From a virus, in the IMG/VR virus record IMGVR_UViG_3300045988_101799: 64,000 bases of DNA; one strand, given 5' to 3'. Shown here piece after piece: positions 8,986 through 49,833 of the stretch. A program made the position numbers and the translations under genes. Numbering within the stretch: position 1 is the stretch's first letter; each line of letters begins with the position of its first letter. The notes beneath the pieces are model-generated. The model was not told the origin of the DNA. It did no database searches and worked only from the letters and a program-made list of their open reading frames with translations.

Positions 8986-11900
8986 CTACTGCTTCATCCG
9001 ATTATGAATTTCCTCCGCACTCAATGCCCCATCAATCTGAATGCTACCCTTCCTCATGAGGTTGATAATGAGTTTCTTCTGCTCTTCGATTAGGCGTTTG
9101 CCCTCGTCCGTGGTATTAGACTTCTGCAATTCGCGGTTGAGCTTCGCGATAGCCTCACGTCCTGCTTGCGGGCTGATGATGTAGGGCATGATGCCTTTCA
9201 TGGCCGCGCCGTAGGTCTTGGCACTCATACCGGAAGTCTCAATCGCGGAAGCCAGAACTTCCTTCCGCAGAGCGGGGTCAAGCATGTTTGTAATTTCCGT
9301 AACAAACCGGACACTATTGACTAGCTTGGTGAAATTCTTCACGGCATCCGCGGTTTCCACGGCTTCCATGAGTTCCACATCCACCCCGGATTCCATTCTC
9401 TTGTAGAAGTCCGGACGAAGAACGCTCGTTCGCTTTGACTTAGTGACTGCCGCGTTGGCATTCTTTAACCCGGCGGCAAGGGCTTCGGTCAAATCCTTCG
9501 GACGACGGAGGCCCGCACCCAAGGACTGTAACCCGTATGCCGCGGCACTCATGTCAGGTGTATCGCTAAACGCTTGTTTACCTGACTTGACTGCCCAGCC
9601 GTAGAAGGGAATCTTTTTATTGGCAACCGTCGCGAATCGTTCAAGGACTTGCCATGTATGTCCACTGCCGAACGAGGGGTTCAGCCCTGCGGCCAACAGG
9701 ATTGCGTTGCCGACTGCCGGGAGAACGTTGACGCTTTCATCACCGGAGAGGCTATGCTTGTAATTGAAGTCTTCCTCATTAAACAATTCAGAAGCGGCAT
9801 TCAGAAGGAGGGATTCTTCAAGCACCGTATTTTCCAGCAGGTTTTTCAGTTCGGCAACCTTGTTCATCCCCCACTTGTCCACATCCATATCCATGAAGAG
9901 GCTGGGCAGGGTTTTGGCTAACACCTTGATGGTCTTGAACGGGTTCATGTATTCAAGGTTCAAATACTCGAACTCATGTCGCTTCATATCTATGATGCCA
10001 ATCAAGTCCCCGAACTTATCGTAGTCTGGAATTAGACCACTGTCTGCCAGCTTCCTCATGACTTCCGCGTCGTCAATGATTTTACGGTCATCGTCATCTC
10101 CCAAGACACTGGTGATAATCTGTCGGGCAACCCAGGAAGAGACCGCAGAGGTTGCAGAAATAGTTCCTACGGAACCAGCGATGCGAACGAAAGCGCGTCC
10201 CAAGAGGTAAGCCCCCTCCTTCTTCATGCCGTTATTGATAGCCCACACACCATCTACCCCTTCGCCTATGGCGTGGCCAAGGTTGTAGACTACAGACTGG
10301 GCGGTATGGTACTGGAACATGAAGAACGGAGCCGCAACTATATTCAGGGTTTTCACCCACGAAGGAGTACGTGAACCCGTGGGGAGCAAGCTCTTCACCA
10401 TGTGGGCAGTATACCTATCCACATACGCATTCCAACTCTGGGTAGTCTGGCTCGCGTCAATGAGTATCTGGTCCCGTGCATTGGGGGTGTCCTTGCCCAT
10501 CGCCCGTGCCAGTTGTACCTTTAATTGGGTATCGGCAATCGCTCTCTGGTTAGTGAAGAGAACAATCTTGGCCGCCGCGTCCGGCAAGCCATAGGCGAAG
10601 GACATCGTTTTGATGGGCCATGCTACGACTTTGCCCGCCATCTTGGCGGCATCCTTAGCCACCTCGCCCTTCGTCCGTTCCTGTTTCTCGTTCAGAGCTT
10701 CGGCCAGTTTGAAGAAGGAATCCTCATTCACTTCTTCAAATTCTCCTGCCATCTTACTGAACTCGTCAGACTTCCAGACGTTGCGCAGGAACTCCCCTTG
10801 ACCTGCGTCCAGCAGACCAAGCTCTTGCCAGTAGCGAATCTTCTCGTTGTACCTGTCTTCCGCGGCCAGCAGTCTATCCGCGGAAGCCTGTGAAGCAAGG
10901 TCCCTGCCCTGTGATAGCCACCATAGCTTACGCAACTGGACCCAGTCCCCGACAAGGTTTGCGATGTCTTTACTCCCCGTGAATGGAAGTGCACCCGCAT
11001 GGGTCATTTGAGCTACTGTACCATATAAGTTACGTAACGTGGAATTAGGACTCGCTATTAAGACAGAAAGGTTAGCCAAGCCACCCGCCTTACTCCACCA
11101 TTCTTGACCCTTGCCGGACTTCTGCCAGTACTTGCGCACCTTCTTATAGTCGTCCGTCCTGCTATTCAGGATGTCGTCGCTCGGTCTGTAGATGCGGTAG
11201 ATGGCATCGGCTACATCCTTGTCGGCGTACATTCCGTTCAACGCATTCTTCGTATTCTTCAAGGAGATTTCCACCATGTCCGAAGTACGGTTCGTGGAAT
11301 TCGGGGGTACGACCACACCCTGTGCCTTGAGCACGGAGGTATACTCGTCAGCAAGCAACTGGTTCACGGCAATCTTCGACTGCATGGATAGGGTATTCTG
11401 TAACGTCCCAATGGCATCCCCAATGGTGAGGTCGCTAAGTTCATACATAGCTTTCCTCTGCCATTCGGGCAAGCGTTTCCGCTGGGCCAGCGCATCTTCA
11501 TTCGTCCTCTTCTTGGACAGAACTTCGTCAATGGCCTTCATGGCATCGTTCACCGCAAGACGGGAGAGTTCCGGATATTGCAACACTTTCAAGTCGGTAG
11601 CGGAGATGACGTTGCCCATATTGTTCGCCCCCATGAGAATGCCCGCCTGACCGCGAAGAAGATTGAGCGTCTTGTCCAGTCGTTCTGCGGCATTCATATT
11701 CGGAGCGTTCCATATCTGGTCAATGGCCGAAGTCGGGATAGTGGGGATGACCTTGTTCACTTCGGAAGCCACGGATGCCGGGGAATCAAGACTGCCGATT
11801 TTGTCCGCAATCGTTTTTCCCGGAAGGTCGGAGAAGACTTCGGCGAGGAAACTATCTCTGGCTTTCATGTCCAGAGTTTCCTTCGTCTCTGTCATCTTTG

Positions 11901-14900
11901 ACTTCGTGTGATAGTCTGCCTGTGCTATCATGCTCATGGCCTTATCATATATGGCACTGATGTTGTGGCCGTCCCTCAAATCTGCAAGCATTTGAACCGC
12001 GCCGAAGTTGTTCTGAATGAAGTCAAGAATTTCCCGGTTCCTGTAGTTCTTGGCTACACCTTCGAACAGGAGTTTATAATTCGCAGAGGCTCCCGTGGGA
12101 GCTGACACCAGCGGAAGTTTCAACTCGTCGTGGAGCGCGGCCAATGCCTGCATGTTGTCCAGCACTTGGCTTACGTTTTCGGATAGTTCTCTCTGGTGCG
12201 CTTCGGCATGAGAGATTGCGGCTTCCTGCAACAGTTTCGTCAGACCGTCGTATTTCTGCGCCAGTTCTCCGTTGGGGTTTGCGATGATGTCCTTCATCGT
12301 CCGGGTGAAGTCTCCGGCATGGCGTCCTACGGCCATGTAGGTGCGATGAAGATAATTCATCTCCGCGGCGTTGTCAGCCATACGGCTATCTCCAATGAGC
12401 TTGGCAATAGAGATTTGCGTTGCGGCAATTTCTTTACGGGAATCGGCGATGACATTGTGGACCAGTTGACCTACAACCCCTTGTGACAGAAGCCACTGTT
12501 CAGCGGCATCCCGCTTAGCCATATACTCCGCTTGTTTTTGACGGCGTGCATTGAGGATAGCGTTGTCCCGTTTCAGCCACACGGAACCAGCAGGGGTAGC
12601 TACGCCAGCGCGAGTTACACCCGCCTTCTTTGTTGCGGCGTAGAAATCCTCCTTGGCTTCCCGGATGATTTGTTTAGCTTCGGCCCGTGCCTTAGCGATG
12701 TCCTGAATCATAGGAGCGACGGCGGGATGGTTTGTACTCTCCGCATAGAGGAAGTCATTGCGAAGGTTGGACCACCTGTCCAGAAGTTCATCCATAGAGA
12801 AGGGACTATCCGCTTCGTTAATCATATCCGCGAGATAGTTTTGCGTGTCGCGGGCAAGACCGAAGTAGGCAGTTTCCAGATTGGCATCCCCCGTCGCGGA
12901 GATACGAGAGCCGAGGTCGGAGAGCGATTTGTGAATCTGCTGGGAGAGCATGGGGAGAGCTACCTGCTTGTCCAGCATGGCACCATATCCCTTGCCGCTC
13001 ATGTCTTTAATCCGGCGCATCATGTCGTTGATTTCCAATCGCCCTTCACTATTAAGCGCAAGGGAGTTAGCCAGACGCACCGCTTCCGCGTGCCTATTGA
13101 CGGCATCGGTGACGGTCTTCTTAGCCAACGCGATACGGAAGTCGCGGGTCTGTTCATGCTGACGAACTTCTGCTTGAGCCTCTGCGTTAATGCGTGCAAC
13201 AGTTTCAGGGTCAATATCGTTGTCCATATTCCCCGACATGTCAAGAATGGACTTGCTCCATTTCTTTCGCGTAGCGGCATCCCAGCCCAGATTATCCGCA
13301 CGGCGTTGAAGCATATCGCCGATTTTGTCAATGCGTTTAATACTACGTTCGTATGCCGCATTCACGTTGGCCATTTGTTCCAGCACAACCAGCTTCTGTT
13401 CCTCGGACTTAACATTGATGCCAGCCTTGTCCCAGTTCTTGGTTACACCCAGCCATCCGTTCTTAATACTAGTCACCCAGTTCCCGGCATTCGTGCCAAT
13501 GATTTCTGCGCCAAGGCCGAAGGACAGTCTCCGGGTCATGTCAGTCTCATAGGCCATCGGGTTAAAATAATCTACCCCGTTGCCCATAGTATAATCCGTA
13601 TCGTCTACCTTCCATGACGGAGTGCGAGGCATATCGAACCACTTGCCGGGGGTCATGTCCGCGACGCGGGCCACATAGGAATCCCATTCAGCCACGCGTT
13701 CTGCGGCGGTGGTTCCGTCCATATCGTCCGCAGTTTGTCGCACGTCCCTAATCAAATCCTTAAGCCATTCGACGAGGCGCACATGAATAGGCTTCCGGCC
13801 TCCCGCCGCTTCGGCATAGCGAGCCAAATCCGTGATGGTGATATTGTCTCCACTAGCTTCCGCTACCATGAAGTTCATGACAGGATTGGAGAACGCGACA
13901 CTGGCAAATTCGTCCGGGCCGCGGAGACCGTAGTTGAGGTCGGAAGCGAGCGCGGCGATGGCATTCATCTCATTGATGTCCACGCTAGCGTCATACATAG
14001 CGGAGAGACTATCAACAATATTGTTGTAGTTCTCTGCAATCGCGCTTCTAATCTTATCCATCCGCTGGGAATAGTCCGTGTTGGTGGTACGAAGATGACG
14101 GTCAATGAGGTGGATGACTTCGTGTAGTACCGTTCCCGTTACGCTTTCAATCGCATTGTCCCGGTTCACGTACAGGTCAATGACACCGCCGACAAGCTTC
14201 CCGTCCGTGCCGTTCATGTAGGTGATACTGGCGGGGGAAGAGATGTTCGCCGGAGCATTGGTTGCACGGATAGCAACATCCAAACCAGCGGCATGCAGTG
14301 CGCGGAGCACTCCATCAATGGCCGCGGCCTGTGCGGGAGAAGCATTAACTTGAAGGTCCGAAAGGATGCCGTAGGCATTTGCGCCAGTCCCATCCGTCGG
14401 GAGATTGAGAGCGGAGACCTTGTCTCCCCACTTGGTGCTAGGTGTCCCTCCCTCACCTGCGTTGTACATGCTTGCGTGCGGAGCGATGACAATGGTTTCT
14501 CCCGTGTTGCTGGTAATCATGGGGGCGTTAATCCCGGTCATCTCGTTCAGGGAGACGAGCTTCGCGCCGCGCTCCAATGGCGTACCATAGGAGAGCCACG
14601 CACCAGTATTACTATCGAACGAGGCGATTGCCGCATCCATGTTATCCACGGTTTCCACGGAACTGGGGGTAACTACTCCCGTCTCTACCATAGCAGTGAT
14701 GGGGGCAATAGCATTGTCCCTCTCCTTCCGGGCAATAGCTACCGGGGATTCCTTGGGTTCCGTGGTAGCCGTGGTAGCCGGGGATTCCGTGGTAGCCGCG
14801 GCTTCCGTCAATCCGTTGATGACGTGAAGAGCGGCGTCGAGGTCTTCATCTCCTGTAGTAAGGATGGACAGGTCGTCGTCTACTTCGATAACCTGAACCC

Positions 14901-17900
14901 GGTCTCCCATAGCATCAAGGGCCTCCGAAAGCATGGTTCGCATGGTGTCGAGGTTTTCCTTATTTGGGAATGACAGGGTATTGGGCAAGTCGTTAATGGC
15001 TTCTGCCATGAAGGAGCTTGCCGCGGCACTGCCCTCATAGGTATGTATTTCGGAGGCCCGTTCAACTAGGTTGCGGAACTGGGTGAAGTTGCTGATACCC
15101 ATACGGACTGCGCCATCCACCCATGCCTTGCGGGTTTCGTCGGAGACAACTAGACTTTCATGGGCAATGGATTTGTCCACCCATTCGCGGGCAACTTCCG
15201 CGGCATCCCCCTTCTCCCCGGCAATCTCGATAACCTTCTTTCCGGTTTCTACCAAGCTTTCCGGCACATTGTTTTTGGTAATGGCTTTGCCCGTTTCCTC
15301 GATGATGTTGCTCGCATCTTTCGTAATATCCGGTAGCATGGAAGTAGCATCCTTTACATCGAGAGTGGGGGCGGCTTCGGTTTGGAAACGTATGTTCCCC
15401 TCACCAGCTAAGTGGCTACCAACGTAGCCGCCGATACCTCCGAGGAAAGCAATCTTCATAGCCCCACTAATCACTTGGTCAGTAGTGGCAATAGAAGATT
15501 CGGAGATTTCTCCGTTCTTCACCAGTTCGGTAAATGCCCATTCTTGGAATTCGTCTGTCAGTTCTTCGGTGGCTCCTTCCACTACGGCCTTGCTCGTGCT
15601 GTACAGATAGGAAGCAACGGCAAACGTCTTTTCCTTCGTGTTCATCTCCTTAAATGGCTTGCTTCTCCATCCGGCCATCTTCCGTTCAAGAGTTTGGAAT
15701 GGAGATTGACCGCGAAGGTTTTTAGCCCCAACAATCTTACGCATGTAGGAATCCATACCTGCGCGGTTGTTGATGAGAGTACTACCAGTAGATACGAGAG
15801 CCGCACCAAAGAGGGCACGCATGTTGGCAATGCTCTGTGCCCTGTTCGTGTTCTCGGCAGTCGGTTCCTTCCCTTCCATCTCCCTATCATAAATGGTATA
15901 GAAGATGTCGGAGTAAGCATTCGGTGCAACCTGCGAGATGATGCTAAGATTTACCCCAGCTCCGGCTCCTGCCCGTTCGAGGTTCAACGCCGCAAGGTTG
16001 TCGAGGTTGCGCTGAATAGTTCCACTCAAACGTCCCGCCAATCCCGGACGGGCGGCAGGGACAAGAGCTTCGGCCCGCTTCGCTACGACGTTAGCCGTTG
16101 CCTTCGCGAACCGCGATAGCGCGGTACGTTCCAGTGCACGGCCAGCGAGGCCGCCAACTTTACCAGCTCCCGCGGTCGCTACCATTTGGTAGCCGAGGTT
16201 AGCGATTTCCGCAGTATAGTCCGCAAGGATATTGCCTCGAACAAGTTCAGCTTCCGCTTCCTGTTTTTTGTTCAGCTGGTCCCAGAGGGTGCGGGTATGT
16301 TCCATCGCCGCACGACTGCCAACTGCATTCTGTGCAAAGAGAAGAGCACCATAGGCGGTACTTGTCCCAAGGTCGATTGCCTTGTGCGTACCTATCTGTA
16401 ACCCGCGGAGAACAGAGTTGATGGTGTCTTGCCCTTTCTCCTGCCATGCGGAGAGGATGTCCTCGTCGCTCTTGCCCGCTTCCTTCTGTTCGTTGTAAAA
16501 ATTCTTGAAGGAAAGGTGCTTGTCCAGATGCTTCATGGATTCAGTCAAGATAGGGTTGAACTGCAAGCCGGAGCCAAGCCACGTATCGCGAAGCGTCCCC
16601 AGCGTCTCGTCCAATGCAATGTTGTCCTTCACAAGTTCCTGTGCGGATTTCTTGCGGAGGTTCTGGAACTTCTCAATGGTGCGATTGATGAGACCTTCGT
16701 CCGCGCCACTAGCACGGAGAGCCTCTATGCTCTGGTCCATCAGCTTATCATTGTAGAGAGCATTGGGGTTCAGTTCGAGTGTGGCGTTCGTATCAACTTC
16801 CTTGGTGTGCGGGTTGTACGCAAAGAGACTGCCACGGCCAACACCCAAGTCACCCATACGTGCGGCATGGGAGAGGGAGTTAAGGGCATCGCGAGTACTT
16901 TCAATATGGTACTGGGCCATGTATTCCTTCAACTGTTCGGGACCTACTTCAAAGGATGGGCCGCCCGGCACGCCATACTGCCATGAGCCACGCTTCGTTC
17001 CCTTCCCCCATTCCATCAAGCTCATTGGGTCAGCGGTCTTACCCACACTATTATCCGGCTGGAAGGTAAGTACGTCCGCAATTTGTCCCGCCGTGCTTCG
17101 GTAGTTAGCCATTGCGCCTTTGACTGCATCCATGAGGGTGCCTCTCGGTGTAGCTTTGGCGGTATAGTCCTGAATCAGTTTGGTTACTCCCGCTTGACGC
17201 AGGGCGGATTTTGGAACCCCCGGAAACCTTGTGGCCACGGCTTCCAGTATAGCCTCACTCATGCCAATCTGTTCGGGGTTTTCGACGGTCAGAGGGCGGT
17301 CCTTCTGGCGGTGAACTTCCTCGGCAATGACCTTTGCCCGTGCACGTATTGCGTCCATGTCAGCACCGGGGACTAAAGACAGAAGGGCAGAGGCCGCGGC
17401 CTCTGGATTGAGAAGCGCGTCGCGAAGTTCGAGATAGGGAAGGCCAGTGTAGTCCTCTTCGAGGCGTCTTACGATTTTGTCTGCGGCTTCTATCTGTTCA
17501 CGAATCCTATCATCAACAGGTTTTTCTTTTTTTGAAATGAGTTTTGCTTGGTCTGTATGGAGTTGTTTCGCATACGCTGTAGCAGATTCCGGGGATTTAA
17601 TATCTTCCGTACTCCGGGAAAGGTAATCCCCGTAGTCGCGGACAAGCTGGAACATTTTGCTGGGAGACTTGGAAAGGTTGGCGAGTTCAGCAAAAACATT
17701 CCCAGTAAATGAAGGTGCTGAATCAGAGAATTCGCCAACGCCAAGCTCCCCCACGCTCGTTTGGCTGGGAGTTTTCTTCTGCACGCCCTCCGTCGAAGAA
17801 GAGCGGTGTTTGTCGTAAAGAGCCTTAGCGGCACGATAGTTGCCAATGTCTTCGCGCCTAATCGTATTGATGACGCTTTCTATTTCTTCTGCGGTGTAAG

Positions 17901-18681
17901 CAATAGGTGCGGTCTCGATGGCTTGTGCCGTAGGTTTACCTGTTCCAACATCTAGATTCGAGTTGAGGTAATCCTTCCGGGCCTTCTCCATTGTGGTGGC
18001 AATGGATTTGGCCACCGCCTTTGCGTTACGGTTTCTGTCCGCGGCAATGGCGAGGAACTTTTCCGTCACGACGGGGTTCCCGTCCTCTCCACTTCCGAAG
18101 CCAGAGCGGGATAAGAAGGCGGAGTGCGTAGGCGTAAGCTCGGAAGAAGACACAACGGTAATTCCCGTATTGTTAGCAAGCTTCTTAATGGCCTCGCTAT
18201 CGCCGCGGGAGGCGGCCGTCAAATCAACCAGTGCATCCTCTCCGCGCTCTACATAGTCTTTCATGTAGTCGAATCCCTCAAAGCTGTACCCACGGTTTCC
18301 TTTGTTCAAGATGTCGAGGGCTTTATTTTCCTCGGCGGTTTTCCATTCTTGTTCCGTATGGGCGCGGGATTTATCTTGCCATTCTACATTCTTCGCGTGT
18401 TCCGCATCCTTTTTCTGTTTCTCCGCAAAGTCATCAACAGACTTAAAGAGGAAGGTGTCATAGTCTGCGGTCGCCGTCGCTCCCTTCTCGGCACGGGTCT
18501 GTCTCTTTTCCGCTAACCTTTGCTCGCGGTCCAGTGCTTTCTGTTCTCGGTCCCGCTGTTTCTGCGCTTGCGTCTCTTGCCACGCGGCGTGCCTTTCTAC
18601 GGCACGCTGTTCACGTGCAATACTACTTCCCGACGTCGGAGTGAAGTCGGACATATTGGCGGTACTAAAGTCAATAGCCAT
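8986..18681 (-). CDS. 3231-aa multidomain virion-associated protein (function unknown); contains HExxH zincin-like motif
   Basis: Uninterrupted 9.7 kb ORF directly downstream of the tail genes; HEVIH in TGTVLHEVIHLIDRH; long predicted coiled-coil/alpha regions; no DxDGD RNAP motif seen. Confidence 0.75.
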   Translation of the reverse strand: MAIDFSTANMSDFTPTSGSSIAREQRAVERHAAWQETQAQKQRDREQKALDREQRLAEKRQTRAEKGATATADYDTFLFKSVDDFAEKQKKDAEHAKNVEWQDKSRAHTEQEWKTAEENKALDILNKGNRGYSFEGFDYMKDYVERGEDALVDLTAASRGDSEAIKKLANNTGITVVSSSELTPTHSAFLSRSGFGSGEDGNPVVTEKFLAIAADRNRNAKAVAKSIATTMEKARKDYLNSNLDVGTGKPTAQAIETAPIAYTAEEIESVINTIRREDIGNYRAAKALYDKHRSSSTEGVQKKTPSQTSVGELGVGEFSDSAPSFTGNVFAELANLSKSPSKMFQLVRDYGDYLSRSTEDIKSPESATAYAKQLHTDQAKLISKKEKPVDDRIREQIEAADKIVRRLEEDYTGLPYLELRDALLNPEAAASALLSLVPGADMDAIRARAKVIAEEVHRQKDRPLTVENPEQIGMSEAILEAVATRFPGVPKSALRQAGVTKLIQDYTAKATPRGTLMDAVKGAMANYRSTAGQIADVLTFQPDNSVGKTADPMSLMEWGKGTKRGSWQYGVPGGPSFEVGPEQLKEYMAQYHIESTRDALNSLSHAARMGDLGVGRGSLFAYNPHTKEVDTNATLELNPNALYNDKLMDQSIEALRASGADEGLINRTIEKFQNLRKKSAQELVKDNIALDETLGTLRDTWLGSGLQFNPILTESMKHLDKHLSFKNFYNEQKEAGKSDEDILSAWQEKGQDTINSVLRGLQIGTHKAIDLGTSTAYGALLFAQNAVGSRAAMEHTRTLWDQLNKKQEAEAELVRGNILADYTAEIANLGYQMVATAGAGKVGGLAGRALERTALSRFAKATANVVAKRAEALVPAARPGLAGRLSGTIQRNLDNLAALNLERAGAGAGVNLSIISQVAPNAYSDIFYTIYDREMEGKEPTAENTNRAQSIANMRALFGAALVSTGSTLINNRAGMDSYMRKIVGAKNLRGQSPFQTLERKMAGWRSKPFKEMNTKEKTFAVASYLYSTSKAVVEGATEELTDEFQEWAFTELVKNGEISESSIATTDQVISGAMKIAFLGGIGGYVGSHLAGEGNIRFQTEAAPTLDVKDATSMLPDITKDASNIIEETGKAITKNNVPESLVETGKKVIEIAGEKGDAAEVAREWVDKSIAHESLVVSDETRKAWVDGAVRMGISNFTQFRNLVERASEIHTYEGSAAASSFMAEAINDLPNTLSFPNKENLDTMRTMLSEALDAMGDRVQVIEVDDDLSILTTGDEDLDAALHVINGLTEAAATTESPATTATTEPKESPVAIARKERDNAIAPITAMVETGVVTPSSVETVDNMDAAIASFDSNTGAWLSYGTPLERGAKLVSLNEMTGINAPMITSNTGETIVIAPHASMYNAGEGGTPSTKWGDKVSALNLPTDGTGANAYGILSDLQVNASPAQAAAIDGVLRALHAAGLDVAIRATNAPANISSPASITYMNGTDGKLVGGVIDLYVNRDNAIESVTGTVLHEVIHLIDRHLRTTNTDYSQRMDKIRSAIAENYNNIVDSLSAMYDASVDINEMNAIAALASDLNYGLRGPDEFASVAFSNPVMNFMVAEASGDNITITDLARYAEAAGGRKPIHVRLVEWLKDLIRDVRQTADDMDGTTAAERVAEWDSYVARVADMTPGKWFDMPRTPSWKVDDTDYTMGNGVDYFNPMAYETDMTRRLSFGLGAEIIGTNAGNWVTSIKNGWLGVTKNWDKAGINVKSEEQKLVVLEQMANVNAAYERSIKRIDKIGDMLQRRADNLGWDAATRKKWSKSILDMSGNMDNDIDPETVARINAEAQAEVRQHEQTRDFRIALAKKTVTDAVNRHAEAVRLANSLALNSEGRLEINDMMRRIKDMSGKGYGAMLDKQVALPMLSQQIHKSLSDLGSRISATGDANLETAYFGLARDTQNYLADMINEADSPFSMDELLDRWSNLRNDFLYAESTNHPAVAPMIQDIAKARAEAKQIIREAKEDFYAATKKAGVTRAGVATPAGSVWLKRDNAILNARRQKQAEYMAKRDAAEQWLLSQGVVGQLVHNVIADSRKEIAATQISIAKLIGDSRMADNAAEMNYLHRTYMAVGRHAGDFTRTMKDIIANPNGELAQKYDGLTKLLQEAAISHAEAHQRELSENVSQVLDNMQALAALHDELKLPLVSAPTGASANYKLLFEGVAKNYRNREILDFIQNNFGAVQMLADLRDGHNISAIYDKAMSMIAQADYHTKSKMTETKETLDMKARDSFLAEVFSDLPGKTIADKIGSLDSPASVASEVNKVIPTIPTSAIDQIWNAPNMNAAERLDKTLNLLRGQAGILMGANNMGNVISATDLKVLQYPELSRLAVNDAMKAIDEVLSKKRTNEDALAQRKRLPEWQRKAMYELSDLTIGDAIGTLQNTLSMQSKIAVNQLLADEYTSVLKAQGVVVPPNSTNRTSDMVEISLKNTKNALNGMYADKDVADAIYRIYRPSDDILNSRTDDYKKVRKYWQKSGKGQEWWSKAGGLANLSVLIASPNSTLRNLYGTVAQMTHAGALPFTGSKDIANLVGDWVQLRKLWWLSQGRDLASQASADRLLAAEDRYNEKIRYWQELGLLDAGQGEFLRNVWKSDEFSKMAGEFEEVNEDSFFKLAEALNEKQERTKGEVAKDAAKMAGKVVAWPIKTMSFAYGLPDAAAKIVLFTNQRAIADTQLKVQLARAMGKDTPNARDQILIDASQTTQSWNAYVDRYTAHMVKSLLPTGSRTPSWVKTLNIVAAPFFMFQYHTAQSVVYNLGHAIGEGVDGVWAINNGMKKEGAYLLGRAFVRIAGSVGTISATSAVSSWVARQIITSVLGDDDDRKIIDDAEVMRKLADSGLIPDYDKFGDLIGIIDMKRHEFEYLNLEYMNPFKTIKVLAKTLPSLFMDMDVDKWGMNKVAELKNLLENTVLEESLLLNAASELFNEEDFNYKHSLSGDESVNVLPAVGNAILLAAGLNPSFGSGHTWQVLERFATVANKKIPFYGWAVKSGKQAFSDTPDMSAAAYGLQSLGAGLRRPKDLTEALAAGLKNANAAVTKSKRTSVLRPDFYKRMESGVDVELMEAVETADAVKNFTKLVNSVRFVTEITNMLDPALRKEVLASAIETSGMSAKTYGAAMKGIMPYIISPQAGREAIAKLNRELQKSNTTDEGKRLIEEQKKLIINLMRKGSIQIDGALSAEEIHNRMKQ

Positions 18682-24475: not shown

Positions 24476-25234
24476 TTATTTCCTTGACAACAGAGTAAGA
24501 GCGTAGGCAAGCCGTGCATTGCATCGGTTGGACCAGCCGGAGAGAAACTTCGCCTTCACTGGATTGGCCCTTACAATGGAACAGTAGCGGGCACGACAAG
24601 CACGGTCCAGCGAATCGAGAACTACCTTTTCATCCCATGATTGAATGGCGTCTGTCCATTTGGCTTGGGTATTTTTCCCCCACTTGCCGTCAATACCAAG
24701 GTCGAGCATGCGCTGGACAACCTTGGTCGTTCCCGCCACACCCATGTTGAAGGTCATGTCGCGAAGCATGAACTCAATGGCGTAGCATCCTGCAACTCCC
24801 TTGGCAACCAGTGGTTCCGTATTGGCGAGAACATAGCGGAGACATTCATCCCATGCCGCATCTCTATCGCCCCGGTCCAACATGGATTTGATTAGATTGA
24901 ATTCCTTGGGTTCAATCCCATCACAGATACCTGCAATCTCCCACTTGCCACCGCCGTCACCAGAGGGGAGGCGAGTTACGCGCAGAGATTCCGGCCCGGT
25001 AATCTTGTAATCCTCCATGTTGAGAATCTTCTTAGCCATGCCCTTGCGGACAAGCTCTGCCGGGGACACGTATGCCGCGGATACCGGGGAATCGTTGGGT
25101 TGTTCATCGGGTACCGGGGATTCCGTGGGTTGTATCTTCTTCCATATAGCATCAATGGTCTTATCACCAAGGATACCGTCGGGCGTAGTTCCCGCCCACT
25201 TCTGTATTTCCTTAATTTTGTTTTTGCTTGTCAT
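24476..25234 (-). CDS. endolysin, GH108 lysozyme-like with N-terminal PG_binding_1 and C-terminal PG_binding_3-like region
   Basis: N-terminal TPDGILGDKTIDAIWK (peptidoglycan-binding motif); central GGKWEIAGI...YAIEFMLRDMTFNMG and C-terminal KFLSGWSNR resemble GH108/PG_binding_3. Confidence 0.55.
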   Translation of the reverse strand: MTSKNKIKEIQKWAGTTPDGILGDKTIDAIWKKIQPTESPVPDEQPNDSPVSAAYVSPAELVRKGMAKKILNMEDYKITGPESLRVTRLPSGDGGGKWEIAGICDGIEPKEFNLIKSMLDRGDRDAAWDECLRYVLANTEPLVAKGVAGCYAIEFMLRDMTFNMGVAGTTKVVQRMLDLGIDGKWGKNTQAKWTDAIQSWDEKVVLDSLDRACRARYCSIVRANPVKAKFLSGWSNRCNARLAYALTLLSRK

Positions 25235-25679
25235 TAGTTTTTTCTACTTTGATTCCATCCGAGGTTAGCTTCCCCAATGAGATTTGAAGGTTAATAATGT
25301 TCGCCATCGACTGGGCAATTTCTCTGGCCCAGCTTTCGAAGTGAAGAGTGCCCAATGGGGTGGCAATGTCCGTGAGAATGGTGGCAATAGTGTCCCCATT
25401 CATGGACACCCTCACGGCATCCGAGAATTCTTCTACCTTGGCTTTCGCGGGTAAGTGGTCGATTTCGTACCACATAACATCCTGTATCTCTTCGTCTTCA
25501 TCATCCGCTTGGGGATATTGGACACGAACGACACCAGCAACATCCTCGTCGGACATTACCCGGAGGATAGACCCTGTTGGGATGCTATCCCCACACATGC
25601 CACATCTCCCCGTATCTATCCGAAGAACAACGTCGCCGCACTTAAATCTGGTCTTAACTTTTCCGGGTCCTGCTTTCAT
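25212..25679 (-). CDS. hypothetical protein of the KxGDxV small-barrel family with CxxC
   Basis: FKCGDVVLRIDTGRCGMCGD; acidic C-terminal half. Confidence 0.45.
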   Translation of the reverse strand: MKAGPGKVKTRFKCGDVVLRIDTGRCGMCGDSIPTGSILRVMSDEDVAGVVRVQYPQADDEDEEIQDVMWYEIDHLPAKAKVEEFSDAVRVSMNGDTIATILTDIATPLGTLHFESWAREIAQSMANIINLQISLGKLTSDGIKVEKTNDKQKQN

Positions 25680-26091
25680 TTTCGTTTTTGGTTTTGTTTA
25701 TATCTGGTAATATGACATGCTCGTTGAGGTCTTCAACAATCTGCTTGGCCCAGTCCACTAATTCCTCGCACATATCGACCTCTTGGTCGCCCAGCCGGTA
25801 CTTGGTAGGTATGCGGAGAACGGGCTGATAGTTGAAGAGGATGATAGCCTCGTCCCGTGTGTATCGGACGAAGACTTCATGTTCGGTCTCTTCCACTAGC
25901 TCAAACTCATAGAAGGGATACCACTTCCCTTCGTTGTCCTCGGTCTTGATAAGGATGCAGTGGTTTCTATCTTCCCCGCTTTGAACATACGCTAAAGAAC
26001 CCTCCGCTAGGCTCTCCCATATTTCTGGATGTCTTCCTGTGTTGATGAACCGAACAAGGTCTCCCTTTTTGAATCTGCGTTTGTTAGTCAT
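25654..26091 (-). CDS. hypothetical protein, KxGDxV family
   Basis: Start trimmed to MTNKRRFKKGDLVRF at 26091; same N-terminal motif as 25212..25679 and 33741..34220. Confidence 0.45.
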   Translation of the reverse strand: MTNKRRFKKGDLVRFINTGRHPEIWESLAEGSLAYVQSGEDRNHCILIKTEDNEGKWYPFYEFELVEETEHEVFVRYTRDEAIILFNYQPVLRIPTKYRLGDQEVDMCEELVDWAKQIVEDLNEHVILPDINKTKNENESRTRKS

Positions 26092-26341
26092 TGAAGATTG
26101 GTTGTTCCTTTTCGACGAAGGTAATCCCCGTGTCGGATTCTTCCGTCGTGCATTTCTTAATCTTGTCACGAAGTTCGATTGCCATTTCGAGGGCGAAGTC
26201 TCTTGTCGGAAGTCCCTTCTCATCCTCATTCCTGTGATAGGGGAACATAGCGATACGGTAGTTTCGATGAATCACCGCAATGATTCCTGCTCGCGGGTAT
26301 TCCATTAAGAAGGTTTCCAGTAGATATTTATCGTTGGTCAT
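26084..26341 (-). CDS. tandem paralog family member E (about 85 aa)
   Basis: Start MTNDKYLL at 26341; 8-nt overlap with the downstream gene; shares the beta-beta-alpha pattern and the K-rich helix. Confidence 0.5.
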   Translation of the reverse strand: MTNDKYLLETFLMEYPRAGIIAVIHRNYRIAMFPYHRNEDEKGLPTRDFALEMAIELRDKIKKCTTEESDTGITFVEKEQPIFND

Positions 26342-26564
26342 TGTTGTTCCTTTTAAGTTTAAATCCTTTTTCGGTTTCGATAATCGTGCTCTTCTCAATT
26401 TTGTGGGCAATCTTCGTTGCCAGTTTCTTTGCCGCGTCTCGCGTCATGAAGCCCCGTTCGTCCCACTCTGTGTAGTAGAAAAATTGGGCAACGGCAATCC
26501 CATCATATTCCACTTCGAACCCGCCGAGCATTTTATTCTCGAAAATTCTTACTTTGTCGTTCAT
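26328..26564 (-). CDS. tandem paralog family member A2 (78 aa)
   Basis: MNDKVRIFENK...TRDAAKKLATKIAHKIEKS...KLKRNNNDQR; about 60% identity to the 27493 copy. Confidence 0.55.
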   Translation of the reverse strand: MNDKVRIFENKMLGGFEVEYDGIAVAQFFYYTEWDERGFMTRDAAKKLATKIAHKIEKSTIIETEKGFKLKRNNNDQR

Positions 26565-26567
26565 GAT

Positions 26568-26816
26568 TTATTCGTCTTGGATTGTACAGTCCGTCGGGCA
26601 AAGGTCAATGCCCCTTTCTGTCATAACGGGATTCGTGTGGATGAGATGGCGAGCAACCATCTTCGCCATTTCTATAGCCCTTTCGCGCGTGGGATAACAC
26701 TGTTCCTTCTCGCCTCCCTCCCGACAATAGTTAAAGATGGCAAAGGTAGCTCCCTCATATTTCACCTTGAGGATTCCTACTCTCTTATTATCTACAATAC
26801 TAATCTCGTTGGTCAT
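26568..26816 (-). CDS. tandem paralog family member D (about 82 aa)
   Basis: Start MTNEISIV at 26816; divergent copy. Confidence 0.5.
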   Translation of the reverse strand: MTNEISIVDNKRVGILKVKYEGATFAIFNYCREGGEKEQCYPTRERAIEMAKMVARHLIHTNPVMTERGIDLCPTDCTIQDE

Positions 26817-27042
26817 TGTTGTTCCTTTTAAGTTTAAATCCTTTTTTGGTTTTGATGGTCGTACTATTTTCAATTTTGCGGACTAGCTTCTCGGTCAGCT
26901 TCTTGGCTTGCTTCTTGGTGAAATGTCCTTCCTCGCCTTCCGTGCAATAGTAAAAGGCGGCAACGCAACAGTTTTCAAGCATGACCCGGAAAAATCCGGC
27001 AATGGGGTCATCTACGGTGGTAATATTTAGAGTGTCAGTCAT
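26800..27042 (-). CDS. tandem paralog family member B2 (80 aa)
   Basis: MTDTLNITTVDDP...FTKKQAKKLTEKL; about 75% identity to the 27264 copy. Confidence 0.55.
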   Translation of the reverse strand: MTDTLNITTVDDPIAGFFRVMLENCCVAAFYYCTEGEEGHFTKKQAKKLTEKLVRKIENSTTIKTKKGFKLKRNNNDQRD

Positions 27043-27271
27043 TAGTATTGTTCCTTTTAAGTTTGATTCCCATCTTTGTTTCTATGACCGTGCTCTTCTC
27101 AATTTTGCGGGCGAGCTTGATGGCTAGTTTCTTAGCTTGCTTCTTGGTGAAGAAGCCGCTTTCATCTGCCACGCAATAGTTGAAAACGGCGACGCAACTT
27201 CCTCTGTGCCTGACGTGGAACATTCCGCTAGTAGGGAGGTCATAAACACGGGTATCTGAATCGTTATTCAT
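27035..27271 (-). CDS. tandem paralog family member C (78 aa)
   Basis: MNNDSDTRVYDLP...FTKKQAKKLAIKLARKIEKS. Confidence 0.55.
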   Translation of the reverse strand: MNNDSDTRVYDLPTSGMFHVRHRGSCVAVFNYCVADESGFFTKKQAKKLAIKLARKIEKSTVIETKMGIKLKRNNTND

Positions 27272-27500
27272 TGATGTTGTTCCTTTCCAATTTGATTCCC
27301 TTTTCGGTTTCGATAATCATGCTCTTCTTAATTTTGCGGGAGAGCTTGTCGGCCAGTTTCTTAGCTTGCTTCTTGGTGAAGAAGCCACTATCATCTTTCG
27401 CGCAATAGTAAAAGGTGGCAACGCAACAGTTTTCAAGCAGGACCCAGAAAAATCCGATATCGGGGTCATCTATGGTGGTAATATTTAGAGTGTCAGTCAT
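27264..27500 (-). CDS. tandem paralog family member B1 (78 aa)
   Basis: MTDTLNITTIDDP...FTKKQAKKLADKL. Confidence 0.55.
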   Translation of the reverse strand: MTDTLNITTIDDPDIGFFWVLLENCCVATFYYCAKDDSGFFTKKQAKKLADKLSRKIKKSMIIETEKGIKLERNNINE

Positions 27501-27732
27501 TGGTGTTGAAATAGATTTGGTTAAGTGATACTCCCTCGATGGTACAAACTGTCCCTCTGCTAACTACGTAGCGGGCAATCTTCGTTGCCAGTTTCTTTGC
27601 GGAATCTCGTGTCATATATCCTTGTTCACCAGAGCCAGTGCAGTAAAGAAAATCTGCAATGACACTTCCACAGTGAGTTACTCGGAAGAATCCAAATCCT
27701 TTGTCTTCTAAAATAGCTACTTTGTCGTTCAT
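27493..27732 (-). CDS. tandem paralog family member A1 (79 aa)
   Basis: MNDKVAILEDK...TRDSAKKLATKIARYV. Confidence 0.55.
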   Translation of the reverse strand: MNDKVAILEDKGFGFFRVTHCGSVIADFLYCTGSGEQGYMTRDSAKKLATKIARYVVSRGTVCTIEGVSLNQIYFNTND

Positions 27733-27743: not shown

Positions 27744-28253
27744 CTATACGTTTGCGGTTTCAATTTTTGAGGGGTCGCCGGGAATGGCAATCTCCCAACA
27801 GAAGGAGGCGATGAAATCGTTGCGAAGAGTTACCTCTTCTCCGACTTTATACCATCCGTCGGGAAGGAGATAATCCCTCTTCATATCAATGGCGGCTCCT
27901 GCCTCTATTGGTTCCAACGCCATGAAACGGTAGTCCCATTCGTTGTTTTCCGTCTTAAAGGATTGCAGGATGAACCAAGGGGTAACGTCGGCGGCTTCAT
28001 CCCCATCTTCGGTTTCCTCCCCAGTAGGCGTTCCTACGACGCGGGCACAATAACCGTTCCTCATGTTCTCCAAGGCAACCCCGAAGGGCAGGTTGAAGTG
28101 AGAGAGGGAATAGGCAATAACGCCCCATGTCAAGGACCGGGCGCGGGAGCAAACCCCGTCAAGCCTTGGAAGTACCGTGGCTATTACTTCGGGGTTGCTC
28201 TCCGGGCCGTCGGAGCAGAGGAAAAATTCTCGGACGCGAGTTGTTGTAGGCAT
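27744..28253 (-). CDS. hypothetical protein
   Basis: 169-aa ORF. Confidence 0.45.
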   Translation of the reverse strand: MPTTTRVREFFLCSDGPESNPEVIATVLPRLDGVCSRARSLTWGVIAYSLSHFNLPFGVALENMRNGYCARVVGTPTGEETEDGDEAADVTPWFILQSFKTENNEWDYRFMALEPIEAGAAIDMKRDYLLPDGWYKVGEEVTLRNDFIASFCWEIAIPGDPSKIETANV

Positions 28254-28261
28254 GGGTTCTA

Positions 28262-32605: not shown

Positions 32606-33622
32606 TCATTTTTCTTGGGACTTCATAGTTAATACGAAGCTATTCCAGTGGGCTACCGCTTCTTCGCGAGTGCGGCCATGAATGGAAATGCTATGTGGAA
32701 GAAGCTTGGTCCCGTTGCAGACAACATAGCAATGTTTCTCTCCGGGGTAGATGGTTTCCTCCACGACCTCCGGGATTTCTCCACAGTAGGGGCAGGGACG
32801 TGGATGGGCGTCGCAGGCTTCAAAATACCGTCGCACCTCTTGCCCCACTCTTTCGGTAAACATATCAACAATATGCTGTGGCACGATTCCTTTGATTCCG
32901 GAACCCACGGTGCCTTCGTCCCCGGATTCCGTGGCTTCCTCGTAGTTCAGGGGATGGTCCAGCCCCTCGTCGAAACAGGAAGCACAGGGTCCCACGGTTC
33001 CGGGCAAGTCCCCGTACTTGCATGTGGAGCAGGGGGAGAGGACATCCTCTTCATCCTCTTCCGCTTCTTCATATTCCGGGTACTCAATTCCCCGCTCCTG
33101 TCGGCAATGAGAGCATGGAGGATTGCAACGGAGGTTATCCCGGTGAGTGCAAGTATTGCACGGTTCGATGACATCATCGTTCTCGTCTGTACCTTCGGCA
33201 CATGGGGCAGATTCATCTGGGGTATAATTCTGATAGCCGTTGCAGGAGATGCAGGGTTCCTCTTCGATAGATACCCCCTTATGTTTACATGTCAGACAGG
33301 TAGGACCAGCCATCTCGGCTTCCCTCCGCTTTGCTTCTTCCCGCTTCATCATCTCCATCGCCGCCAGCTTGTTGGTATCGGAGGTGAAGCTGGGAAGTCC
33401 GGGAGTGAGAGCACACTTCTGACAGGGGGATTGCACCAGCAAGGTATCACGGAATTTGCAGAGGGAGCACCTCCGTGCATCCTCGCTTGCCGCGGTGTCC
33501 GTCGCTTGCGTGGATTCCGTGGATTCAAAGTGGCTAAAGTACATGTCACAACTGGCGCAGGGTTCCGCGGTGTCGGGGAGGTCACGGTATGCGCAGGTAA
33601 TACAATTCGGTTCGTCGTTCAT
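32606..33622 (-). CDS. protein with five tandem zinc-ribbon modules
   Basis: Five repeats of C-x2-C-x(3)-[DG]-x(5-8)-C-x2-C (CITCAYRD..CASC; CSLCKFRD..CQKC; CLTCKHKG..CISC; CNTCTHRD..CSHC; CSTCKYGD..CASC), plus a terminal CPYC. Confidence 0.55.
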   Translation of the reverse strand: MNDEPNCITCAYRDLPDTAEPCASCDMYFSHFESTESTQATDTAASEDARRCSLCKFRDTLLVQSPCQKCALTPGLPSFTSDTNKLAAMEMMKREEAKRREAEMAGPTCLTCKHKGVSIEEEPCISCNGYQNYTPDESAPCAEGTDENDDVIEPCNTCTHRDNLRCNPPCSHCRQERGIEYPEYEEAEEDEEDVLSPCSTCKYGDLPGTVGPCASCFDEGLDHPLNYEEATESGDEGTVGSGIKGIVPQHIVDMFTERVGQEVRRYFEACDAHPRPCPYCGEIPEVVEETIYPGEKHCYVVCNGTKLLPHSISIHGRTREEAVAHWNSFVLTMKSQEK

Positions 33623-33740: not shown

Positions 33741-34220
33741 TTAGTCGATTAGTTTGAGGTCAAAGAACATAACGGTGTTGAAGTAGCTAGTGGTCACTCC
33801 ATCGATAGCTACCCAGCCGTCGCTGTCTTCATCATCGTAAACCGCGTACTCCTGATAGGGTGTAGGCTCTTCATCGTAGCTTACCCAGCCGCGAGGAACG
33901 TATTGTACCCTATCCCCTCTCTTGAACGGTCGCCGGGGTTTGGCGGTGTTATTGCAACTGGCGCGGACAGATTCTTCTGGCGCATCTAGAACTTCTTCTG
34001 GCGCATCTAGAACTTCTTCTGGCGCATCTAGAACTTCTTCCATCTGGTAAGCAGAGGCCCACTCCGCTAATCCTCCCGAATAGCGTACCTTGTACGGGTA
34101 GAAGTCCTTTTCGTTGTCGATTTCCACGACGCGACCGCAAGGGCCGTAGTCGACGCGGACAATCATTCCGAGTTTAACTTGATTCTTTTCCATGTTAGAA
34201 TTTGATGTTTGGGTATTCAC
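33741..34220 (-). CDS. hypothetical protein, KxGDxV family, with 3x EEVLDAP coding repeat
   Basis: Alternative start MEKNQ at 34193; KLGMIVRVDYGPCGRVV and KRGDRVQYVP motifs; 21-nt perfect repeat x3. Confidence 0.45.
   Translation of the reverse strand: MNTQTSNSNMEKNQVKLGMIVRVDYGPCGRVVEIDNEKDFYPYKVRYSGGLAEWASAYQMEEVLDAPEEVLDAPEEVLDAPEESVRASCNNTAKPRRPFKRGDRVQYVPRGWVSYDEEPTPYQEYAVYDDEDSDGWVAIDGVTTSYFNTVMFFDLKLID
33972..34040. repeat. 21-nt perfect tandem repeat x3 (encodes EEVLDAP x3)
   Basis: ttctggcgcatctagaacttc repeated three times. Confidence 0.9.
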
Positions 34221-49317: not shown

Positions 49318-49833
49318 CTATATCCTTTCTATATCCCAGTTGTCGAGGGTCAGTGTGTGGTCGTCGTTCAGTTCCCGGTACGCGTACAATAGAATGAGAA
49401 GAGCGTCCGCGTTCTGCAATGTCACCTTCGCGCCGGGGAAGTTCTCCATTGCGATGCGCTTCAAGTTATTCTTCCACTTGGTCCGGTCCCTTGCGGTTAG
49501 TCCCGTATCATACGCGCCCATAGCCCGCATCCATACGATTGGGGAAACCTTTGTGACAGTGTACCCCGCCGCCGCGGCATAACCGAGGACCTTCCCGGTT
49601 GCCTCTCCCAATATGCCACTACTTCTCGGATTGGACACCTTGCCGCCTCCGCTCATGGCATAGCTCATCTTCTCAATGTACATGATACGATGACGGCTAC
49701 GTGGCAGTTTGTTCAATATGATTTCCAGTTCCCTTTCGTCCTCTGGCATGTGCTTTATCCAGATTTTCTTGCTCCGGGTGTCCGCGAGTACAAGGGCACC
49801 GTGGGTTCCGGGGTCAACTCCTACTAGTTGCAT
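49318..49833 (-). CDS. RuvC-like Holliday junction resolvase
   Basis: N-terminal VGVDPGTHGALVL (RuvC GxDPG motif); size 171 aa. Confidence 0.7.
   Translation of the reverse strand: MQLVGVDPGTHGALVLADTRSKKIWIKHMPEDERELEIILNKLPRSRHRIMYIEKMSYAMSGGGKVSNPRSSGILGEATGKVLGYAAAAGYTVTKVSPIVWMRAMGAYDTGLTARDRTKWKNNLKRIAMENFPGAKVTLQNADALLILLYAYRELNDDHTLTLDNWDIERI

Follow-up and report, generated by a model that had tools for sequence, protein, structure and literature searches.

Several described systems share features with the array reported here. Domains of the AP2/ERF and ApiAP2 type (PF00847; e.g., SIP2 of P. falciparum, PDB 6sy0) are the fold neighbours of the modelled array protein, and the N-terminal arm-type DNA-binding domain of tyrosine integrases belongs to the AP2-integrase superfamily (PMC1702500). 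In phage T4, tandem amplification of the counter-defence gene tifA has been described as a 'genomic accordion' (PMC9391042). The internal proteins of T-even phages (IPI, IPII, and IPIII) are small, variable between phages, non-essential, late-encoded, and packaged into the virion, some of them featuring anti-defence functions: IPI blocks GmrSD, and IPIII is required for growth on strain ECOR17 (PMC9391042).

The sequence analyzed in this study, referred to as the window, is a stretch of 64,000 nucleotides of the virus record IMGVR_UViG_3300045988_101799. Positions 26,084 to 27,732 of its minus strand are filled exactly by seven consecutive paralogous open reading frames of 78 to 85 aa, arranged head to tail (Table 1), as stated in the preliminary description. 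All seven copies (c1 to c7) could be aligned from end to end, with the invariant residues G14, V18, A26, F28, Y30, T41, A45, and G67, and a family HMM recognized each of them with E-values between 1e-24 and 1e-38. Beyond these copies, the window translated in all six frames gave no score below E=2.6. The reading frames are intact in all seven copies; those of c5 and c7 begin with an ATG inside a longer TTG open reading frame, in agreement with the gene calls of their relatives, the c5 orthologue in the related locus L001 being called at 82 aa. The seven-gene run is a genuine set of maintained paralogous genes.

Table 1. Array copies and flanking genes, listed in the direction of transcription (positions refer to the window).
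Feature	Position	Strand	Characteristics
169-aa gene	27744..28253	-	Conserved; separated from copy 1 by 11 nt on its upstream side; 32 viral contigs with differing arrays share it at 93-99% identity
Copy 1 (c1)	27493-27732	-	79 aa; conserved type; HMM E=1e-34; sheet-segment pN/pS 0.14 within type
Copy 2 (c2)	27264-27500	-	78 aa; fast-evolving type common to copy 4; 8-nt overlap with copy 1
Copy 3 (c3)	27035-27271	-	78 aa; most basic copy, net charge +7; 8-nt overlap with copy 2
Copy 4 (c4)	26800-27042	-	80 aa; 8-nt overlap with copy 3
Copy 5 (c5)	26568-26816	-	82 aa; acidic, helix non-basic; 17-nt overlap with copy 4
Copy 6 (c6)	26328-26564	-	78 aa; sole junction without overlap (3-nt gap after copy 5); copy used for modelling
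Copy 7 (c7)	26084-26341	-	85 aa; most divergent, acidic; 14-nt overlap with copy 6
145-aa gene	25654..26091	-	8-nt overlap with copy 7, same AAT-GAC/ATG-AC junction; SH3-like domain at the N-terminus, a paralog of the one in the 155-aa gene
155-aa gene	25212..25679	-	N-terminal SH3/KOW/Tudor-like barrel
Endolysin	24476..25234	-	23-nt overlap with 155-aa gene; PG_binding_3 E=1.3e-10; PHROG endolysin E=1.3e-16

Some details of the preliminary description had to be revised. Overlaps of 8 nt, assumed for all junctions, apply to three of the six junctions within the array and to that between c7 and the following gene; two further junctions overlap by 17 and 14 nt, respectively, and c5 and c6 are separated by 3 nt. 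The proposed DNA period of ~237 bp corresponds to the gene length, the start-to-start spacing being 232, 229, 229, 226, 252, and 223 nt. Pairwise protein identities range from 23% to 67%, instead of from about 75% down to 30-40%. Nevertheless, the subtype order A-B-C-B-D-A-E appears reasonable, c2 and c4 sharing 67% and c1 and c6 49% identical residues. The motif set given for all copies (GFFRV...CVA.F.YC, GFFTKKQAKKLA, and KGFKLKRNN) is complete in c2 to c4 and partial in c6, but c1, c5, and c7 have nothing beyond the scaffold residues in common with the other copies. At the DNA level, the copies are 43% to 80% identical, and the absence of any tandem repeat in the TRF analysis fits old, diverged copies.

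To evaluate the distribution of the family, sequence, profile, and structure databases were searched. Only 22 representative clusters were found among 1.84 billion proteins, and all 198 word-index matches were unannotated and located on contigs of up to ~70 kb from human-gut samples. The family was detected neither in GTDB genomes nor in deposited phages. Megablast and tblastn searches of 50,697 deposited phages with the region, the giant open reading frame, and the terminase gave no match, and the DNA polymerase of the phage is at most 27% identical to those of deposited phages. Furthermore, no bacterial genome among the genome contigs scanned carries the 169-aa gene flanking the array, so no clue to a host or prophage was obtained from this gene. 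As judged from these searches, this orphan family is restricted to a single uncultured lineage of ~70-kb human-gut phages.

Likewise, none of the copies was assigned to a characterized family. No Pfam model reached its threshold, the NCBIfam scan gave nothing meaningful, PADLOC matched none of the seven copies, and PHROGs yielded a best E-value of 0.04 for one of the seven, with no similarity to any virion or internal protein. The profile search of PDB sequences returned only noise (best E=0.063), Foldseek found nothing at E≤0.001 among the BFVD viral models, and a literature search retrieved no description of such an array. The impression that it does not correspond to any described system thus holds for profile, fold, and literature searches.

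Each product is a single domain of ~9 kDa. As modelled for c6, its predicted fold comprises an antiparallel sheet of three strands that packs against one helix, followed by a beta-hairpin. The N-terminal part, previously taken for a beta-hairpin, is accordingly modelled as a three-stranded sheet. The predicted core is AP2/integrase-arm-like, as the AP2 arrangement of a three-stranded antiparallel sheet against one helix is present in the modelled structure. A YegP/DUF1508-like core (PF07411), as suggested before, was not recovered as a Pfam match or a structural neighbour, the likeness being limited to a small mixed strand/helix module; the structural neighbours found were AP2 domains, and below threshold, Pfam pointed to Arm-DNA-bind_4 (PF14657). 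The latter, representing the same fold class, was the only Pfam model matched recurrently (18 of 48 family members, the matched region spanning the last strand and the helix), but no match reached the gathering score of 22.3 bits, the best E-value being 0.013 and the score of c6 11.7 bits. The AP2 model itself matched one of the 48 members (E=0.15, below the gathering score) and none of the seven copies.

Compared to AP2 domains, the array proteins possess an extra C-terminal beta-hairpin and, in several copies, acidic or hydrophobic sheet faces, and they are encoded in tandem as stand-alone 9-kDa phage proteins. The Arg and Trp residues contacting DNA in AP2 domains are not conserved. In contrast to the integrase arm domain, the array genes are also devoid of a recombinase catalytic domain; no integrase is adjacent, and the neighbouring genes lack recombinase domains.

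Column entropy alternates along beta2 and beta3: V18, A26, F28, and Y30 show at most 0.3 bit, whereas columns 17, 19, 23, 27, and 29, which would face outward as deduced from this alternation, are the most variable (2.2-3.0 bits). The hydrophobic core positions are invariant over 230 distinct sequences. This pattern suggests a constant scaffold made up of inward sheet residues and the helix, and a variable surface comprising the outward sheet positions together with the beta1-beta2 loop. The chemistry of this surface is basic, acidic, or hydrophobic depending on the paralog; c6 has an acidic outward face (E17, E19, and D21), and c2, c4, and c7 have a hydrophobic one. The net charge of the copies ranges from -4 to +7, c5 and c7 being net acidic (pI 5.2-5.7), and the conserved helix and tail are strongly basic in four copies.

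The preliminary description had proposed a comparison of selection between copies, and pN/pS values were calculated within orthologous types. In most segments, values between 0.14 and 0.5 were obtained, representing purifying selection and indicating that the genes are maintained. However, in the sheet segment of the type comprising c2 and c4, nonsynonymous changes exceeded synonymous ones (pN/pS ~2.9), an excess due to replacement alleles of intermediate frequency (of the variable columns over 32 codons, 11 were replacement and 4 silent) and expressed as a simple ratio in which recombination is ignored. For the c3 sheet segment, the value was 0.94, with replacements at outward-facing positions. 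The replacements in these sheet segments result from changes of single nucleotides and affect columns 6, 8, 10, 12, 13, 17, 19, 21, 23, and 27. The array was also considered as a target of a diversity-generating retroelement (DGR); the substitutions at variable codons are mixed (TGG/CGG/CAG, CTG/ATG, GTT/GAT/ATT, and ACC/GCC) and not adenine-specific, and exchange of whole segments also contributes to the variation, both of which argue against it.

Within the window, the DNA of the copies is a segmental mosaic, including exact matches of 27 to 41 nt. The first 100 nt at the 5' end of c2 are 96-100% identical to c4, its middle part is 97% identical to c3, and c4 and c6 have a 41-nt exact tract at the 3' end in common. 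Arrays of homologues, for which a search in related phages had been recommended, were indeed found. Using the upstream 169-aa gene as an anchor, ~40 related loci were retrieved that carry between one and seven copies per array in variable order, with chimeric combinations of N- and C-terminal parts. Copy number and order differ even between near-identical genomes, arrays of two to seven copies occurring next to flanks with 93-99% identity. Some constituents are widespread: the c5 type was present in 27 of ~34 arrays, the c7 type (type 6.5.6) was the final copy in all 31 arrays having it, and the c7 C-terminal segment is kept in arrays collapsed to a single gene. The chimera P0079 was found on at least ten contigs from six independent samples, four of these loci being collapsed to P0079 alone. 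At every locus examined, at least one copy is kept. Some of the mosaics could be chimeras of short-read assembly.

These observations, together with the selection values, bear out the view of old, actively diversified paralogs as opposed to a recent repeat. Homologous recombination in short identical tracts, situated in the helix-coding DNA and the gene junctions, drives the evolution of the array, altering copy number (one to seven) and order and creating chimeras of N-terminal (sheet) and C-terminal parts, and point substitutions add further diversity on the variable surface. The phage genome encodes a Holliday-junction resolvase and an exonuclease. As for tifA in T4, a small phage gene of ~80 aa varies in tandem copy number through recombination at short homologies, which takes place in a host-defence context in T4. 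However, the T4 amplifications are recent, identical, and dosage-raising, whereas the array copies are old, individually maintained, and diversified on one surface, with a role in defence being only proposed.

Regarding function, we tentatively favour the explanation that the array constitutes a repertoire of small binding proteins that is driven by recombination and probably serves counter-defence or host takeover. Each copy would recognize a different host target or target variant, with the variable face as the putative binding face. Such a role would account most simply for the way the array evolves; its expansion, collapse, and reshuffling between closely related phages fit an arms-race locus. 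One point speaking against binding proteins of this kind is that the family has no homology link to any target or activity. In a more specific form, which we consider rather doubtful, the repertoire would be combinatorial and independent of a dedicated diversification enzyme: ordinary homologous recombination would shuffle sheet against C-terminal segments, expand and contract the set, and thereby track polymorphic host targets, e.g., defence proteins. The AP2-fold scaffold would then have been repurposed from DNA to protein recognition, and the two downstream genes with SH3 fusions would belong to the same toolkit.

Alternatively, the products could be sequence-specific nucleic-acid binders that, in the mode of AP2 and integrase-arm domains, insert the sheet into the major groove, each paralog reading its own DNA or RNA site as a regulator or genome-associated protein of phage or host. 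That all fold neighbours are DNA-binding domains, and that four copies feature the strongly basic helix and tail, supports this possibility and counts against a repertoire of protein binders. It nevertheless seems rather unlikely, because conserved basic or aromatic residues are missing from the outward face, c5 and c7 are acidic overall, the Pfam AP2 and Arm models all stay under threshold, and arrays of one to seven copies among near-identical genomes are unusual for regulators. The wide charge range, together with the acidic face of c6 and the hydrophobic faces of c2, c4, and c7, argues against a uniform DNA-binding role, and proteins are more likely than DNA to be the targets of at least some copies.

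The genomic context brings a further possibility into play. The array lies within a run of tightly overlapping genes toward the endolysin, surrounded by a long block of genes that could not be annotated, and is located downstream of the terminase and of large genes of structural size; its earlier designation as part of an accessory island is plausible. Owing to the overlap between the endolysin and the 155-aa gene, the array and the lysis gene seem to share one transcript; no terminator was predicted along the coding strand, and the genes are probably part of a late transcription unit. The scan for sigma-70 promoters and terminators was uninformative, as phage and host promoters may not follow this consensus. 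Searches for tRNAs and Rfam families found none, and the conserved tail codons AAA-AGG-AAC are unlikely to act as a Shine-Dalgarno sequence, a similar motif being present in just 3 of 33 other genes; this scarcity of Shine-Dalgarno motifs suggests a host among the Bacteroidota. A site adjacent to the endolysin is atypical for early-acting takeover genes, unless their products are packaged.

Internal proteins of T-even phages carry an N-terminal capsid-targeting sequence that is cleaved by the prohead protease. The array products could, by comparison, be late virion-associated (internal or ejected) proteins or accessory proteins of morphogenesis or lysis, possibly anti-defence factors delivered with the DNA, as suggested by the co-oriented, contiguous genes leading into the endolysin and by the likewise small, variable, and packaged T-even proteins. 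We regard this as improbable: the array family has no sequence or fold relationship to these proteins and no recognizable capsid-targeting or cleavage motif, and the T-even internal proteins do not form a paralogous recombining array. Finally, a functionless by-product, i.e., neutral tandem duplications, decaying pseudogenes, or assembly artefacts of the metagenomes, is highly improbable and already largely refuted, since, despite individually dispensable copies and short identical tracts that could mislead short-read assemblers, all frames are intact, pN/pS is well under 1 in most segments, core positions are invariant, every locus examined retains a copy, and independent samples and different assemblers repeatedly yielded the same arrangements and chimeras.

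If the favoured repertoire of binding proteins is real, the array would represent a compact natural case of a virulent gut phage building such a repertoire via duplication, gene conversion, and unequal crossing-over, with the variable surface mapping clearly onto a simple scaffold, and it would add protein binding or another non-canonical use to the AP2/integrase-arm fold. The seven distinct but related 9-kDa proteins and hundreds of natural chimeras provide a set for screening against gut-bacterial defence systems. As a recombination hotspot, the array is also usable for strain-typing of this abundant, uncultured phage lineage. Should the products merely be DNA-binding regulators or virion components, the locus would still be a clear case of paralog-array dynamics, although of modest general interest.

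The two genes between the array and the endolysin are related to each other, the 145-aa protein matching the N-terminus of the 155-aa protein in BLASTP (E=1e-7) and an SH3-domain HMM with E=1.8e-29. The C-terminal part of the 155-aa protein is probably a diverged copy of the array module. An equivalent assignment of the C-terminal half of the 145-aa protein is unsupported (E between 0.14 and 0.31; hhalign against the family E=0.31). Natural fusions of the 145-aa gene type with array copies were found in three cases (P0095, P0121, and P0135).

Seven ORFs of 78-85 aa follow one another on the minus strand of the region 26084-27732 (copies c1 to c7, numbered in transcription order). The end-to-end alignment of the seven proteins revealed invariant residues at G14, V18, A26, F28, Y30, T41, A45, and G67, and a family HMM recovered each copy with E-values between 1e-24 and 1e-38, whereas E=2.6 was the best value for any other ORF when the window was translated in six frames. 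This gap indicates paralogy far beyond chance and exactly seven copies in the window, so that the tandem series of paralogous genes proposed in the preliminary description was borne out by ORFs, alignment, and HMM. The start of c5 and c7 is an ATG internal to a longer TTG-initiated ORF, which matches the conserved start position of the other copies and was also chosen by gene callers in a related contig. The 8-nt overlaps previously assigned to all junctions were found at three of them, but the others overlap by 17 and 14 nt, with a 3-nt gap between c5 and c6. An 8-nt overlap with the same AAT-GAC/ATG-AC junction also connects c7 to the next gene (145 aa). Start spacing varies between 223 and 252 nt instead of following a ~237-bp period, and pairwise identity, earlier estimated at ~75% down to 30-40%, ranges from 23% to 67% for protein and from 43% to 80% for DNA. 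No DNA tandem repeat was detected in the array by TRF, as expected for old copies. A 183-aa ATG ORF (26280-26831, plus strand) lies antisense to copies 4-7 and is most readily accounted for as a side effect of codon bias in the minus-strand genes; the selection analysis favours the minus-strand frames over it. The sole non-overlapping array junction has a sigma-70-like match (TTGACC-16-TACAAT, 26581-26608, minus strand) immediately ahead of copy 6, which may be a chance occurrence, since the sigma-70 consensus may not be that of this host.

Features of the phage genome surrounding the array
Feature	Position	Strand	Basis
Primase/helicase	56437-59367		
DNA polymerase	53412-55466		
Helicase	52060-53415		
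Exonuclease	50853-52067		
Holliday-junction resolvase	49318-49833		
Large terminase	47472-49316		
Unannotatable gene block	terminase to array		
Array	26084-27732	-	
c1	27493-27732	-	ORF call
c2	27264-27500	-	ORF call
c3	27035-27271	-	ORF call
c4	26800-27042	-	ORF call
c5	26568-26816	-	ORF call
c6	26328-26564	-	ORF call
c7	26084-26341	-	ORF call
145-aa gene	25654-26091		
155-aa gene	25212-25679		
Endolysin	24476-25234		
3231-aa ORF	8986-18681	-	

The array family is an orphan, lineage-restricted, and undescribed one. The profile of the seven paralogs retrieved 198 unannotated proteins of 76-86 aa in a word-index search, and when 1.84 billion representative proteins were scanned exhaustively with HMMER, only 22 clusters reached E≤0.001, all belonging to this phage lineage. 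Searches of the array copies against Pfam, PHROGs, NCBIfam, and PADLOC yielded zero matches at threshold. The sole recurrent signal was Arm-DNA-bind_4 (PF14657), covering the last strand and the helix in 18 of 48 members, all under the gathering score (best E 0.013); AP2 was matched by one of the 48 (E 0.15). AlphaFold2 modelling of copy 6 from a 48-sequence alignment (pLDDT 84, pTM 0.69) gave three strands (5-10, 15-20, and 23-30), one helix (42-58), and a hairpin (59-64 and 67-72), so that an AP2-like core of sheet and helix followed by a hairpin is predicted with confidence. This predicted fold agrees with the Arm signal, since a passage of PMC1702500 citing Balaji et al. 2005 treats AP2 and integrase arm domains as a single superfamily. 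The likeness to both families lies at the level of the fold, and by sequence no copy qualifies as a member of either. The YegP/DUF1508-like module suspected earlier found no support in the searches, and this guess at the fold was wrong, the predicted one being AP2/arm-like. Foldseek against viral models returned nothing significant.

Column entropy over 230 distinct family sequences revealed a single hypervariable face on a constant scaffold. In beta2 and beta3, positions of low and high entropy alternate: V18, A26, F28, and Y30 are essentially invariant (≤0.3 bit), whereas positions 17, 19, 23, 27, and 29, together with the beta1-beta2 loop (12 and 13), are the most variable of the protein (2.2-3.1 bits). 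Helix residues A45, K46, K47, L48, and A49 are conserved. The variable positions probably form a solvent-exposed face of differing chemistry (c1, c3, and c5, basic; c6, acidic with E17, E19, and D21; c2, c4, and c7, hydrophobic or aromatic); the net charge of the copies ranges from -4 to +7. Pooled pairwise pN/pS within orthologous types across 34 loci was 0.14-0.5 for most segments, indicating that the genes are maintained. Exceptions were the sheet segments of the c2/c4 type (2.9) and the c3 type (0.94), an excess which falls short of a positive-selection call because these are pooled pairwise ratios and not recombination-aware site models. Sheet replacements are single-nucleotide and multi-allelic (e.g., TGG/CGG/CAG, CTG/ATG, and GTT/GAT/ATT) and fall on outward-facing and loop positions (columns 6, 8, 10, 12, 13, 17, 19, 21, 23, and 27). 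Variable columns numbered 11 for replacement versus 4 for silent changes, so that the excess reflects replacement alleles at intermediate frequency.

At the DNA level, the window copies are segmental mosaics: c2 and c4 share 96-100% identity over the 5' ~100 nt, c2 and c3 up to 97% in the helix region, c4 and c6 96-100% at the 3' end (41-nt exact tract), and c1 and c6 up to 93% in the helix (28-nt exact tract). The 34 loci, retrieved via the conserved 169-aa gene flanking the array upstream (93-99% identical among loci), contain two to seven copies per array, seven being found in the window and in the related locus L001. Copy order differs among arrays, with the c7 type last in 31 of the 31 arrays having it. 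N-terminal (sheet) and C-terminal segment types are variously combined, N5 with C1, C2, C4, or C7, N2 and N3 each with C2, C3, or C4, and N1 with C1 or C2. In the natural chimera P0079, a c1 sheet is joined inside the shared helix to a c7 C-terminus, as expected if the first and the last gene had undergone unequal crossing-over; the chimera is the sole remaining copy in four loci. Individual mosaics could be assembly artefacts; the recurrence of P0079 speaks against this as a general explanation, since at least 10 contigs carry it and these come from six independent samples and from different assemblers. The array thus expands, collapses, and reshuffles in the population through homologous recombination, and the phage has its own resolvase and exonuclease genes. 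Diverged copies, selection pattern, and reshuffling together support the initial reading of an old, actively diversified duplication series. In many relatives, an additional 123-aa gene separates a 150-aa gene from the 169-aa gene (L002 4617-4988, L036 1349-1720); it is missing from the window (28254-28261) and L001. The 145-aa and 155-aa genes also vary in presence among relatives (e.g., L036 and L040), indicating that the plastic zone reaches beyond the array. An IS605-type OrfB/TnpB gene (PF01385, PF12323), absent from the window, was observed ~2 kb upstream of the array region in L036 and L037 (locus coordinates 1-450).

The C-terminal half of the 155-aa protein follows the element order of the array module in its predicted structure (pLDDT ~90) and aligns in register with the family profile (E 2.3e-5, probability 76%). 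The tails are alike (GIKVEKTNDK and GIKLKRNNTND in the array), and natural in-register chimeras with array copies exist (P0122 and P0128). The 155-aa protein is therefore a probable diverged, domain-fused family member. Membership of the 145-aa protein was not supported (E 0.14-0.31); fusions of it to array copies were found (P0095, P0121, and P0135). A 159-aa ORF (33741-34220, minus strand) weakly matched the profile of the SH3-like N-domains of both proteins (E 0.0019) and may represent a third distant paralog.

The window represents most of a ~70-kb phage genome with nearly all genes on the minus strand, and GC content within this block is lowest in the array (44.8% vs. ~51-53%). The INPHARED collection contained no genome resembling this phage: its DNA polymerase is at most 27% identical to any entry, and the terminase and 3231-aa ORF had no match. 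The latter also lacked Pfam and PHROG matches, as did the ORFs of 985, 247, and 378 aa preceding it in transcription order. Relatives originated from human-gut metagenomes and IMG/VR, and a scan of 185,579 representative bacterial genomes yielded none. Shine-Dalgarno-like motifs precede only 3 of 33 non-array genes in the whole window, and this near-absence suggests a Bacteroidota-like host with SD-independent initiation. The AAGGA that precedes five starts in the array region stems from Lys-Arg-Asn tail codons. The 169-aa gene ends 11 nt before the array, every gene from c7 to the endolysin overlaps the next (8, 26, and 23 nt), and no coding-strand terminator was predicted. Overlaps and terminator prediction are most simply read as a single transcription unit comprising the array and the lysis gene.

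The variable face would serve as a binding surface, and the array as a repertoire aimed at variable host targets. A role in counter-defence or host takeover is likely on this inference, and the corresponding suggestion of the preliminary description is plausible. Protein targets are favoured for at least some copies, since acidic or hydrophobic sheet faces are hard to fit to the AP2 mode of DNA reading. Binding of nucleic acid is a serious rival, as helix and tail are basic in c2, c3, c4, and c6 and every fold neighbour is DNA-binding; the same acidic or hydrophobic faces speak against it for some copies. The adjoining endolysin raises a third possibility: products made late or packaged, in analogy to the internal proteins of T-even phages, of which some act against host defences (PMC9391042). 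The small T4 counter-defence gene tifA is tandemly amplified by recombination (PMC9391042); in contrast, the array copies are ancient and diversified, not recent dosage repeats. The locus was rated as a hypervariable phage accessory multigene locus on a predicted AP2/arm-like fold, useful as a hypothesis generator.

A 338-aa ORF (32606-33622, minus strand) displayed a weak C-terminal match to the Lar-like zinc ribbon of the restriction alleviation family (Pfam E 9e-4, below threshold; PHROG 599 E 1.8e-4). Finally, the ORF-poor, repeat-packed region 59400-62400, which separates the minus-strand block from the plus-strand genes, contains TAACAAC/TAACAAG clusters in direct and inverted orientation (59473-59978; 5 matches vs. 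0.01 expected), direct repeats of 89 and 47 nt (60328-61044), a 19-bp tandem repeat (ACTTACAAAGTTAGTCCAG, 12.4 units, 61715-61949), a 9/18-bp tandem repeat (TTGAACCCG/TTGAAGCCG, 7 units, 62024-62086), and three units of GGGGGAACC (62261-62288), and by its repeat content looks like an origin/iteron and regulatory region.
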